A DNA stretch of 20,000 nucleotides from the IMG/VR virus record IMGVR_UViG_2681813236_000004. One strand, given 5' to 3'. Numbering within the stretch: position 1 is the first letter of the stretch; every line of letters begins with the position of its first letter. The notes under the pieces are model-generated. The model made no database searches. It was not told the origin of the DNA and saw nothing but the letters and a program-made list of their open reading frames with translations. This DNA is from an uncultured virus (IMG/VR IMGVR_UViG_2681813236_000004). Lineage: Duplodnaviria; Heunggongvirae; Uroviricota; Caudoviricetes. Made by a program: the position numbers and the translations under genes. This document shows, one piece after another, positions 2,667-5,574 of this stretch.

Positions 2667-2729
2667 GGTAAGAGCACTCGATGCATTTAAGCCAAGCCCC
2701 ATAAGGGAGAATGCCCTTACCTGTTGTGC

Positions 2730-2805
2730 TGGTGCCGGTTAACGGACTCGAACCGCTGACATCCTGCTTACAAGGCAGGCGCTCTACCAACTGAGCTAAA
2801 CCGGC
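2730..2805 (-). tRNA. trnT: tRNA-Thr (TGT)
   Basis: Reverse complement is GCCGGTTTAGCTCAGTTGGTAGAGCGCCTGCCTTGTAAGCAGGATGTCAGCGGTTCGAGTCCGTTAACCGGCACCA, with anticodon arm CCTGC-CTTGTAA-GCAGG and a CCA end. Confidence 0.96.
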
Positions 2806-2807
2806 AT

Positions 2808-2883
2808 TGGCGATGGTGGATGGATTTGAACCATCGACCCGTTGATTAACAGTCAACCGCTCTAACCGCTGAGCTACACCATC
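2808..2883 (-). tRNA. trnA: tRNA-Asn (GTT)
   Basis: Reverse complement is GATGGTGTAGCTCAGCGGTTAGAGCGGTTGACTGTTAATCAACGGGTCGATGGTTCAAATCCATCCACCATCGCCA, with anticodon arm GTTGA-CTGTTAA-TCAAC and a CCA end. Confidence 0.95.
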
Positions 2884-3169
2884 ACTTGCCGGGTACGTCT
2901 CCGGCGAGGGCTTCCACCTCCGTATGCTTTTCGGCGCACCGCGCCCTGACTGCAATTCGGTAACAGGGGATGCATAATCCTGGCTTCCAGCGTGATTAGC
3001 GCCTTCAGCATGACGGGATATACCCGTAAATTCGTGGAACTGTACCCAAAGTGCTGTTAAGCACCGCTGTTACGCTGAAAAGAAGACGCAACAGGAAAGG
3101 ACGCTGACCAACAGATGGCCCCTTCTCGTTCATCTGGTTAATCACACCAGCGCCCTTACCTGTTGTGCC

Positions 3170-3340
3170 TCCCCGTTCCCTAATACACAGACGGGGACAC
3201 TCTGTGGTCGATTTTTTGACGGGGGACGACTCATACCCCGTGGCGTCTGGCTTCTTAGGCCGCTACCATCATCAGATTATCGTTTGCATTTACTTTAATG
3301 GTCAGTTTCTAAACCGCCGCAAAGTCGCTAACCATGACGA
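3170..3340 (-). ncRNA. Candidate tmRNA-like RNA (mRNA-like domain only: pseudoknot, tag frame ANDNLMMVAA*, two pseudoknots)
   Basis: Tag-like frame at 3287-3255 reads GCA AAC GAT AAT CTG ATG ATG GTA GCG GCC TAA. It is flanked by three pairable H-type pseudoknots. No tRNA-like domain was found. Confidence 0.55.
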
Positions 3341-3348
3341 AAACCCTG

Positions 3349-3374
3349 AAAAAAACGCCCACCCGAAGATGGGC
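3349..3374 (-). terminator. Intrinsic terminator
   Basis: GCCCATC-TTCG-GGTGGGC followed by GTTTTTTT on the minus strand. Confidence 0.8.
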
Positions 3375-3535
3375 AAACTGGAAGCTCGTAACGCACTTCG
3401 GCGTTGCCACTTAGGCGCATGGTCAACCTGGCAACTCGGTGGTTTGTCTGGGAGGACTAGGCCCAGCCATGCTTACCGCCGCGCCTGTCGCGGCTAACAG
3501 CTAAATCGCTCTATAAATCACGATTCATTGAGGCG

Positions 3536-3565
3536 ATATTACACTAATAAATTTATTAGAGCAAT
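3536..3565 (-). promoter_or_regulatory. Bivalent C1 repressor operator overlapping a sigma70 promoter (Op72/ban-operon-like)
   Basis: Perfect P1 C1 operator ATTGCTCTAATAAATTT at 3549-3565 (-), plus an overlapping inverted copy ATTACACTAATAAATTT at 3538-3554 (+). Promoter TTGCTC-17 bp-TAATAT on the minus strand. Overlaps the dmt stop codon. Confidence 0.88.
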
Positions 3566-5574
3566 ATACCTAAAACGTCATGAGCAACACCTCGAGTGTC
3601 CCCCTTACAAGACACAGAACGTCTGGCAAAAAGAGGTTCCACTCTGAAGCCATTGTCATGATAAAGCTCTCTGATGTTTGGCGCGCCACTGTTAGTAATG
3701 AGAACCTTTGCACCTCGGCGATGAGCATCCGTCAACAGAGACACCAGGCGTTTTTGCTCTTCAAACTTAAAGTCATGACCGGAATAGTTCGTGAATCCCT
3801 CTGTATTTGGAAGCGGTTCATATGGCGGATCGCAAAAAATGACATCTCCTTCTCCGGCAGCTTCAATCACCGCAGCAAAATCACCACATACAAACTCAGA
3901 ACGCCCTTCCGCACCAAGGAAGGCTTCCATCTCCTGCAATGGGAAATACGGAGTTTTATACTTCCCATAACCGACATTGAACTCACCGGCCTGGTTGTAA
4001 CGCGTCAATCCGTTAAAACAATGTCGGTTCAGGAACAAAAACGCCGCTGCGCGATGTAAATCATCATAGACTTGTTTGTTAAACGCATTCCGTACTGCCA
4101 GGTATCCTTCCTGTGTGTTGTAGTCCTGGAAAAACCGATGCGCCAGAGTGATAAGTGAACGTTCCTCACGTTGCAAAGTCTTGTAAAAGTTAATCAGGTC
4201 AGCATTCACATCATTTAGCAGATTTTCCTTGTATCCGGCATTCATGAAGACAGCTCCGCCACCGACAAAAGGTTCAATCAGGCGCTTCCCTTCTGGCAAA
4301 TAGCGAAAGATTTGTTCCAGAACACCAAATTTTCCACCAGCCCATTTGAATATGGACCGTTCGAATTCTGCCGCTGGTTTAACTTTTCGCTCTTTTGTTT
4401 CATTCCCTTCATTCTGCCGACATGCAGCCTTGGTAATCCGATCGCCAATCCAGCGCATTACTGGTATCGCCATACTATTGCCGATCGCTTTGTAACGCGG
4501 TCCGTCAGCTGCAAGCATCGCGGCCTCTTCTTCGCTCAAATCAGGATAGTTTTTGCGAAGGTATGCCAGTTCATCTGAAGAAACTTTTTTACGCTTTTCC
4601 GTAGGGATCAATGTATGTCCATCAGGAAAACCTTGCAGCCTTTCACATTCGACAGGGGTAAGACGGCGCATTCTACCGTCGCCGAGCAATACAATTGGTG
4701 CTTCATGGTTACATGTCAAAGTTGGTGCCGAATTATCGGTTTTTATCTCAGCCCCTCCTTGCCCATGTGCCATGGCAATTATGTTTGTATCATCGCAAGT
4801 TCTGATAGCGATGTTTGAAGTATATCTGGTAGTTTCCTTCCCCTCGCCTCTGCTCGGCGCAATATTCCGGCGCACGCCTTCGAACTCAAAAAGTACCGTT
4901 GCGGGATCGAGGTCTGTTCGAGCACTTGCGACAACAAACACGCGTCGGCGTCGTTGTGCCACTCCGAAGTATTGGGCATCAAGGATTCTCCAGGCCACTT
5001 TTCGCTGCGGTCCATAAATACAACCACACTGCGGCCACTTTGGAGCATGGCAACCGGTTTTGACATCCCACCGCCAGAACGCGTTACTTTTTCCTGATTC
5101 AGGTCGATCACCTGGTTCGAATGGCGCATCTTCTCCAGCCAATCCGGCAAGGAAACATCCGAAGGCGTTATCTGCCGATGACAAGACTCCTGGGACATTT
5201 TCCCAGACGATAACTGCTGGTTTGAGAAATGACTCAGCCCGTTTGTCGTCAATTGCATTTGCAAGCTCCACATACTTTAAAGTTAGCGCGCCACGCTCAT
5301 CATCAAGCCCACCACCTAATCCCGCGATACTGAATGCCTGACAAGGTGTTCCCCCGACGAGCACATCAGGGGATTCGATTTCCCCAGCCAGGACTTTTTT
5401 GGCAAGTTTTGTCATGTCGCCAAGGTTGGCGACATGGGGCCAGCGGTGCGCAAGAACGGCAGATGGAAAAGGCTCGATTTCAGCAAACCACGCCGGACGC
5501 ATACCCAACGGTTCCCAGGCAATACTCGCGGCTTCAATTCCACTGCAAACAGATCCATAGCACAGCTCTTTCAC
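3556..5574 (-). CDS. dmt: Bifunctional DNA methyltransferase: N-terminal C5-cytosine MTase fused to C-terminal Dam-family N6-adenine MTase
   Basis: C5-MTase motifs: SVCSGIEA (I), GGTPCQAFS (IV), ENV (VI), QRRRR (VIII), [15 protein letters not shown] (IX), YKAIGNS (X). Dam motifs: KWAGGK, EPFVGGG, DPPY. Confidence 0.95.

Follow-up and report, generated by a model that had tools for sequence, protein, structure and literature searches.

What could be the function of an RNA that looks like the template part of a transfer-messenger RNA (tmRNA), with a resume codon, a tag reading frame and downstream pseudoknots, and has no tRNA-like domain of its own? This question is raised by a locus on the minus strand of a 20,000-nucleotide (nt) stretch of viral DNA (IMG/VR record IMGVR_UViG_2681813236_000004, a virus fragment of 63.6 kb; hereafter the window), which represents a P1-type phage-plasmid (98.6% identity with P1, AF234172, across 801 bases). 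Features described below lie on this minus strand unless stated otherwise. Our data show that the locus is a conserved structured RNA module of about 180 nt (positions 3155-3345; covariance model score 130 bits, E 2e-37, with homologues found by BLAST), which is made up of an antisense arm to the host tmRNA, a linker, a tag frame, a hairpin with the stop codon and two pseudoknots, i.e. of an antisense arm joined to a tmRNA-template look-alike without a tRNA-like domain. With this arm, the module probably docks on the host tmRNA to block or replace its tag.

The arm is formed by the first 36 nt of the module (positions 3310-3345), which consist of three blocks complementary to ssrA and together are antisense to nt 67-106 of the host tmRNA (GGUUUUCGUC..GUU.GCGAC UUUGCGGC..UUUA), with ssrA of E. 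coli K-12 (L176:294-656) serving as the host reference. The target comprises the 3' strand of pseudoknot 1 (PK1), the resume codon and tag codons 2-6. In detail, the block UUUGCGGCUUUUUA faces ssrA nt 68-81, i.e. PK1 loop 3, the 3' strand of stem 2 and AAA; GCGAC faces nt 87-91, i.e. the -1 triplet and the GC of the resume codon; and (U)AGUUUUCGU(C) faces nt 96-106, i.e. tag codons 3-6. An insertion in the arms of lambdoid phages and P1 adds an extra GUU facing AAC, and the N4-like phages as well as phage Kevin feature a variant (GCGAUUAUGCGG) that addresses the same target in a different register. At the end of the duplex, the phage strand exits opposite host nt 67/68, beside PK1 stem 1.

This complementarity between arm and host is extended, specific and beyond chance. 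Tested with RNAduplex against ssrA nt 55-115, with 100 shuffles per arm, all 36 of 36 distinct arms reached -27.1 to -38.5 kcal/mol, always on ssrA nt 67-105/110, with shuffle means of -12.5 to -19.1 kcal/mol (z -3.1 to -7.8); for the arm in the window the values are -36.5 kcal/mol versus -18.7 for its shuffles (z -4.7). Of 3102 background windows, none does as well apart from those containing ssrA and the strand complementary to the arm itself. The net gain upon cofolding, with the costs of unfolding included in a nested model, exceeds that of arm-shuffled controls in four out of four modules. Moreover, the target in ssrA is nearly invariant across 80 gammaproteobacterial species, which explains how one module can be common to phages of many hosts. 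The antisense arm thus offers a concrete way for the module to work without a tRNA-like domain of its own.

The earlier note on this DNA had read the same region as a PK1-like pseudoknot within the module. The pairing that it drew (ATGGTTAG/CTGACCAT) can form in P1 and, apart from a single mismatch, also in the copy of the D6 type; the insertion that holds its 5' strand is missing from many members of the family, and the associated loop pairing of the ACTTT/AAAGT type is 88.3% paired with a single compensatory cell only. This region is better explained as the antisense arm to the host tmRNA.

Could the arm be a mere relic? In a stand-alone decoy, the mimic would not pair with tmRNA at all and would instead titrate one of its ligands (SmpB, S1, RNase R or the ribosome), and the complementarity of the arm would be left over from an inverted duplication of a captured piece of ssrA. 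The module does resemble an mRNA-like domain, and contacts of S1 and SmpB with the upstream region and the pseudoknots are discussed in passages of a study on tmRNA (PMC2481249). However, in 49 of 49 cases the arm pairs better with the host than it does with the homologous 61 nt of the module itself (mean -34.8 versus -17.4), i.e. the arm still matches the host sequence while the sense copy has diverged, and the columns of the arm blocks are some of the best conserved in the module. We therefore consider a decoy of this kind very unlikely.

The 3' two-thirds of the module are similar to the mRNA-like domain of tmRNA. Following the arm, an A-rich linker of 22 nt (positions 3288-3309) leads to a GCA resume codon, with a U at -5 and an A at -4. 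The distance between arm and GCA is 22 nt in 52 of 55 aligned rows, and the path from nt 68 to nt 89 in the host tmRNA is 22 nt as well. The letters of the linker agree with those of the host at about half of the positions, which is of little weight because both are A-rich. Across 40 haplotypes, the base at -4 is an A in all 40 and the base at -5 is a U, replaced by C in two. This fits published results for tmRNA, in which, according to the parts of that work that bear on the resume signal, A86 is indispensable, the exchange U85C is tolerated and the A-run leaves some freedom (Miller et al. 2008, PMC2481249).

The tag frame itself (positions 3255-3287) was found in the window just as the earlier note had reported it, with the letters GCA AAC GAT AAT CTG ATG ATG GTA GCG GCC TAA, i.e. 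ten codons for ANDNLMMVAA and a TAA stop codon. Two pattern scans of IMG/VR yielded at least 119 and 49 stretches; the loci gathered comprised 169 regex matches, of which, among the matches listed, 150 are true copies of the module. The remaining 19 lack any flanking motif and are located within open reading frames (ORFs), which marks them as chance matches, so that every true copy listed is intact: all 150 have the GCA resume codon, exactly ten codons of the type AN[DE]x...[AV]A and a stop codon, for which TAG is the sole variant. The commonest tags in this set are ANDDLMMVAA (39 copies), ANEEMYLAVA (33) and ANDDVVLMAA (31), followed by ANDDLMLMAA (12), ANDEQFLAVA (11), ANDDQFLAVA (7) and rarer variants. 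As a minor point, the window differs from reference P1 and from most P1-like copies in the fourth tag codon (position 3278), which is AAT (Asn) instead of GAT (Asp), giving ANDNLMMVAA in the window versus ANDDLMMVAA in reference P1. In 40 distinct haplotypes, the extra letters at codon positions 1, 2 and 3 amount to 10, 6 and 16, respectively, and ANDDVVLMAA is spelled by several synonymous versions across unrelated phage types. Taken from sequence comparison, this pattern suggests that the tag frame is under coding selection and is translated.

That the frame belongs to an ordinary small ORF or a readthrough peptide seems hardly credible. The earlier note had mentioned an in-frame ATG at 3335, which in P1 would give MVSDFAAV-TAG-...ANDNLMMVAA, and a further ATG overlaps the resume codon (in an ATG CAA ACG... 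frame). These ATGs and their frames are absent from other lineages, however: Kevin has CTG, the lineages with short arms have no upstream ATG, and there is no Shine-Dalgarno sequence.

The 3' part of the module owes its structural support to comparison, since the single-sequence fold is unremarkable (z -1.34). A covariance model was built from 55 representatives at 95% identity, 57 matches were re-aligned, and pairs were counted for the stop hairpin, both stems of the two pseudoknots and the candidate PK1 stem (31 pairs in total). In the 55 distinct rows, 91.1% of the cells are paired versus 82.6% in shuffles, and 160 cells show a double change versus 55.5 expected; in neither case did any of 500 shuffles reach the observed value. 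Compensatory changes occur in 16 of the 31 pairs, and controls with slid pairings are 38-45% paired. By this strong covariation, the stop hairpin and the two downstream pseudoknots are confirmed. The stop codon lies, as had been noted before, in the loop of an H5-like hairpin (positions 3241-3268), whose helices are 84.3% and 82.9% paired with three compensatory pairs. Pseudoknot 2 (PK2; positions 3207-3240, CGGGG/CCCCG with GTCG/CGAC, the register of stem 2 in P1 having been set by eye) is 98.9% paired in stem 1, with compensatory changes in three of five pairs, and 87.5% in stem 2, with three of four. For pseudoknot 3 (PK3; positions 3170-3206, CACAGA/TCTGTG), the corresponding values are 97.0% with four of five pairs and 96.5% with two of four. 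Both tandem pseudoknots of the earlier note thus covary, with the correction that stem 2 of PK3 in P1 is TCCCCG/CGGGGA and extends to 3170, within a module that spans 3345-3155; of the three pseudoknots that the note had put up for a covariation check, the two downstream ones bear it out and the PK1-like one, as drawn in P1, is not conserved.

The module is widespread and not a peculiarity of P1. In sensitive BLAST searches, the stretch 3345-3169 recurs in unrelated phages at 68-87% identity, whereas its flanks in P1 do not. Matches were found in 288 phage records and 618 plasmid records, and 660 of 5426 complete E. coli genomes (about 12%) have the module, at 582 plasmid and 140 chromosomal places. 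Its carriers include Ackermannviridae (phiMAM1, Kevin, Magnus), N4-like Gamaleyavirus (Bp4, ECBP1, KP8), Drexlerviridae and other siphoviruses as well as P22-like and other lambdoid phages, and the module in the 'Vibrio' phage pYD38-A is of the enterobacterial type. Beneath these matches, the annotation is either 'none' or 'hypothetical protein'. Two aberrant copies were seen on the way: a second and partial one that comprises the PK3 part only (L039:192-331; 20.3 bits), and a P1-like variant in which the arm is replaced, PK2 is deleted and the tag frame is intact (L023:801-919), which looks like a decaying copy.

The genomic contexts differ widely. In Kevin, Bp4 and STGO-35-1 the module adjoins tRNA genes, in ESP2949-1 it lies upstream of the terminase, and in HK620 it is located in the late leader, with pR'/qut on one side and a terminator ahead of the holin gene on the other. 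In siphoviruses, a consensus promoter (TTGACA-17-TAGATT) precedes the arm by only about 5-12 nt, which places the arm at the very 5' end of the RNA. These contexts bear on the idea that the module is a cis-acting or processing element of long phage leaders, which would have been derived from tmRNA and now serve stability, antitermination or tRNA maturation, unrelated to trans-translation. The module is indeed always found in untranslated leaders or tRNA islands and between long clamp hairpins. A promoter of its own in siphoviruses and the very different contexts do not fit this idea, however, and neither the conserved resume and tag features nor the arm would be explained, all of which makes a cis-acting role unlikely.

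If the module belongs to trans-translation, does it have an acceptor part of its own? The claim that a tRNA-like domain is missing holds in all loci and genomes searched. ARAGORN found three tRNAs and no tmRNA in the window, and no tmRNA in four phage loci or 124 oriented loci. At gathering scores, Rfam models detected only three tRNAs in the window, with the module below every threshold; with permissive thresholds, the resume and tag region of the window matched RF04321 (permuted tmRNA) with 25.3 bits and E 0.0043, where the cut-off is 47, and alpha_tmRNA with 15.7 bits. The best match of any copy to Rfam tmRNA models (permuted and beta) was 39 bits (E 3e-6; L024), which is also under the cut-off of 47. 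In the whole genomes of P1, STGO-35-1 and HK620, RF00023 stayed below its cut-off and matched the module at model positions 82-140 only, i.e. the template region; further matches were two weak ones to the whole model, which fall in the tRNA regions that adjoin the module in P1 and STGO-35-1, and two weak ones in HK620, which are spurious, being located inside an O-antigen gene. Thus, a tRNA-like domain was found neither adjoining any copy of the module nor elsewhere in the P1, HK620 and STGO-35-1 genomes.

A number of tRNA-like elements were observed in the neighbourhood of the module. T-arm-like hairpins adjoin several copies; the clamp hairpins of L011 (about +135 to +190 from the resume codon), L029, L050 and L063 enclose tRNA-like three-way junctions with a GGTTCGAATCC T-arm, in which ARAGORN calls no tRNA; and in Bp4 (L003:1673-1751 and L003:1310-1381) and Kevin (L002:1281-1370) the module is flanked by odd tRNA-like genes, called as 'tRNA-Cys(aca)' (in a 90-nt version in Kevin) and a weak 'tRNA-Ala(cgc)', with poor anticodon arms. 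As acceptor pieces, these neighbours were rejected, since they are not conserved between families and lack G3:U70 (the tRNA-like gene of Bp4 has U3:G70 instead, as seen by eye).

These findings also bear on a classical two-piece tmRNA, in which the module would be the coding piece and the acceptor piece would reside elsewhere in the phage. The T-arm-like hairpins next to several copies, the odd 'tRNA-Cys(aca)' calls in Bp4 and Kevin and a best Rfam resemblance to permuted tmRNA would all suit such an arrangement. On the other hand, no acceptor piece is conserved across families and none is present in P1, HK620 or STGO-35-1, the tRNA-like element of Bp4 has the inverted U3:G70 pair, and the siphovirus promoter leaves no space for a 5' acceptor strand. 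A classical two-piece tmRNA is therefore highly improbable. Of the modes of action in trans that the earlier note had envisaged, the one modelled on two-piece tmRNAs is thus unsupported as far as a phage-encoded acceptor piece is concerned, and the module most plausibly acts in trans to modulate or use the host's own trans-translation.

How would such an RNA be produced by the phage-plasmid? According to the annotation of P1, this stretch is part of the untranslated leader of the ban operon, in which Pban, together with the C1 operator Op72ab, is followed by a dicF-like region, the module, tRNA-Asn, tRNA-Thr, tciABC, trnI and ban. The earlier proposal of a tmRNA-type coding piece within a C1-controlled transcript is in line with this position in the Pban leader, between the dicF-like terminator and tRNA-Asn. 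This intrinsic terminator (positions 3349-3374) closes the dicF-like region directly upstream of the module, and no promoter-like site was seen ahead of the module in the window, so that the module in P1 would be reached by readthrough from Pban. On its other side, the module is flanked by a long 'clamp' hairpin (positions 3090-3164; AACAGGTAAGGGCGCTG ... CAGCGTCCTTTCCTGTT), which was identified by eye and shows compensatory differences to its lambdoid counterpart (AACAGGTAAGAGCATTG/CAGTGCTCTTTCCTGTT); it probably represents a processing site that bounds the module.

Other elements in this part of the window are worth recording. The dicF-like region (positions 3349-3441) closes with a UUCG-loop terminator that adjoins the module. 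Clamp hairpins (AACAGGTAAG.../...CTTTCCTGTT) are found not only at 3090-3164 but also further on, down to 2884, and clamp stems with compensatory differences also frame swappable cassettes in lambdoid late leaders; these hairpins may be RNase III sites. On the plus strand, a GTG-initiated ORF of 110 codons (positions 3165-3497) overlaps the module and the dicF-like region in antisense orientation; it is likely spurious and probably the source of the 'hypothetical protein' calls in some records.

Taken together, these features suggest a hybrid two-piece tmRNA, i.e. a tag swap in which the phage RNA docks on the host tmRNA, hides the template of the latter and provides one of its own in exchange, which we put forward as the best, if tentative, reading, one that is possible though short of probable. 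In this scheme, transcription from Pban upon C1 derepression, followed by probable excision at the flanking long hairpins, would generate an RNA whose arm anneals to host tmRNA nt 67-106. This would open PK1 stem 2 and bury the host resume codon. The phage strand would then exit the duplex by host nt 67 and present its own resume codon after 22 nt, just as in the host molecule. A stalled ribosome that has been entered by host Ala-tmRNA and SmpB could thus resume on the phage template and add (A)ANDNLMMVAA in place of (A)ANDENYALAA. In such a hybrid, the host would contribute the alanyl-tRNA-like half and SmpB and the phage a clamped-on RNA with a different tag, so that the fate of the rescued proteins would be altered while the rescue machinery would still serve the phage.

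The main rival explanation shares the docking and dispenses with the swap. As a pure antisense inhibitor, the arm would block or destroy the host tmRNA template, for example by sterically blocking the resume codon or by RNase III cleavage of the imperfect duplex of about 35 bp, and the 'tag' of the module would never be translated; the tmRNA-like remainder would serve to stabilize the RNA or help it to find tmRNA, SmpB or ribosomes. The complementarity between arm and target suits inhibition, and trans-translation in vitro is reduced by more than 95% when antisense oligonucleotides are directed against tmRNA, as stated in parts of a published study (PMC7038980). Furthermore, sections of a 2014 article (PMC4131195) present a phage RNA consisting of just the tRNA-like domain as a presumed inhibitor of tmRNA, and the comparison of synonymous and nonsynonymous changes given below is not decisive. 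What inhibition would leave unexplained are the invariant A at -4, the GCA, the fixed length of ten codons, the 22-nt linker that matches the spacing in the host, the Ala or Val-Ala ending and the stop codon kept in 150 of 150 copies (with TAG as the sole variant, among the matches listed). We consider pure inhibition possible as well, if on the unlikely side.

Several observations weigh against the tag swap. With regard to the pairing, the arm of P1 has two mismatches and only a small net cofold gain (-7.4 versus -3.4), and the arms of Ackermannviridae have an uncompensated C.A mismatch. Even when G-U pairs are allowed, unbroken complementary runs (14 nt at most) do not exceed those in shuffles, and the duplex of the whole module with ssrA is at chance level (z about 0), which confines the signal to the arm versus its target region. 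The nearly invariant target leaves little room for arm-target covariation; pattern scans for arms adapted to the ssrA of Yersinia or Haemophilus gave no matches, and the ten matches in a scan for Vibrio-adapted arms were the reverse strand of ssrA genes or due to chance. With regard to translation, the tag frame is not singled out by synonymous differences (154/1371 versus 211/1645 in frame +2), and variation at third positions is partly due to stem pairing, so that this indecisive count leaves coding selection and translation suggested rather than proven. With regard to expression, the module in P1 sits behind a terminator. Twelve RNA runs from five studies contain the stretch as assembled contigs only; four of these contig sets span 2700-3700, and contigs cannot show transcription, ends or strand. 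In one RNA run, a separate contig of 769 nt (2799-3567) has a depth above that of the upstream contig, which is no proof of transcription either. Finally, we know of no precedent for a ribosome resuming on a template that is held to tmRNA by an antisense duplex alone.

How does the module relate to known systems? tmRNA is known as a self-contained molecule that comes in one piece or two, and phages are known to carry either whole tmRNAs or the tRNA-like half alone. With the mRNA-like domain of tmRNA (SsrA, RF00023), the module shares the A at -4 and the U at -5, the GCA resume codon, a tag that starts with AND or ANE and ends with Ala, and a stop codon in the loop of a hairpin, with H-type pseudoknots behind it. 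In contrast to tmRNA, it has neither a tRNA-like domain nor a P2 helix, falls below the Rfam cut-off, has two instead of three pseudoknots after the tag, and carries the antisense arm in the place of PK1. Like the coding pieces of two-piece (permuted) tmRNAs (RF04321, RF01849, RF01850), to which it shows its best, sub-threshold Rfam similarity in the UAAAU-GCAAACGAU...GCNGCNUAA region, the module would be a template RNA separate from the acceptor end. Natural coding pieces of this type contribute the 5' half of the acceptor stem and are paired to an acceptor piece of their own, whereas the module shows neither a 5' acceptor strand nor such a partner, the only strong partner found being the complete tmRNA of the host.

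The 'mini-tmRNA' of mycobacteriophage DS6A, which consists of the tRNA-like domain only, is comparable in that one half of tmRNA is located on a phage and is thought to interfere with trans-translation, as described in parts of the same article (PMC4131195). DS6A keeps the tRNA-like domain, however, whereas our module keeps the template, and the proposed modes of action also differ, with titration of SmpB by the former and antisense docking by the latter. Synthetic anti-tmRNA oligonucleotides abolish tmRNA activity in vitro by antisense pairing, at least in the experiments described in the relevant parts of the report (PMC7038980), but are artificial and provide no replacement template. There is also some likeness to DicF and other processed phage small RNAs (dicBF operon of Qin), since the module shares the P1 leader with a dicF-like region, is bounded by long hairpins (possible RNase III sites) and is proposed to base-pair in trans. 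Unlike these, it carries a reading frame and pseudoknots, and its proposed target is a stable non-coding RNA of translation rather than an mRNA.

In the full-text literature, of which most subscription journals are outside coverage, we found no published description of the module. The portion on phage genes in the article cited above lists phage ssrA only for mycobacteriophages and Bacillus phage G, plus the DS6A RNA consisting of the tRNA-like domain (Hudson, Lau, Williams 2014, PMC4131195), and a 2025 review of phage small RNAs does not mention tmRNA or ssrA (PMC12197685). The module occurs in well-studied phages (P1, HK620) as well as in numerous virulent phages of types employed in therapy, is unannotated and is not in Rfam. 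An RNA that supplies only a template and finds the host tmRNA through antisense pairing would, if true, represent a new viral route to seize or shut off translational quality control. Should the tag swap take place, proteins rescued during infection would end in a phage-chosen peptide (ANDDLMMVAA, ANDEQFLAVA, ANEEMYLAVA or others), which would replace the ClpXP/SspB degron ANDENYALAA, and the resume signal would have to work on a non-covalently attached template; such a module could also provide a natural tool for retargeting the tags of trans-translation.

Two further observations concern the surroundings of the module in other phages. In one prophage, a Sib antitoxin RNA (RF00113, 98.6 bits; L012:326-479) is located near the module. 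In lambdoid phages and siphoviruses, a conserved leader domain (GTTGTGGTGAATGCGCAGGCTGATGCGC ... AAGCCGGAGATCAGCACCGGCCACCACA) follows at about +230 to +400 from the resume codon (L018/L005), and its layout, with a 7-bp closing stem and two hairpins, is tRNA-like.

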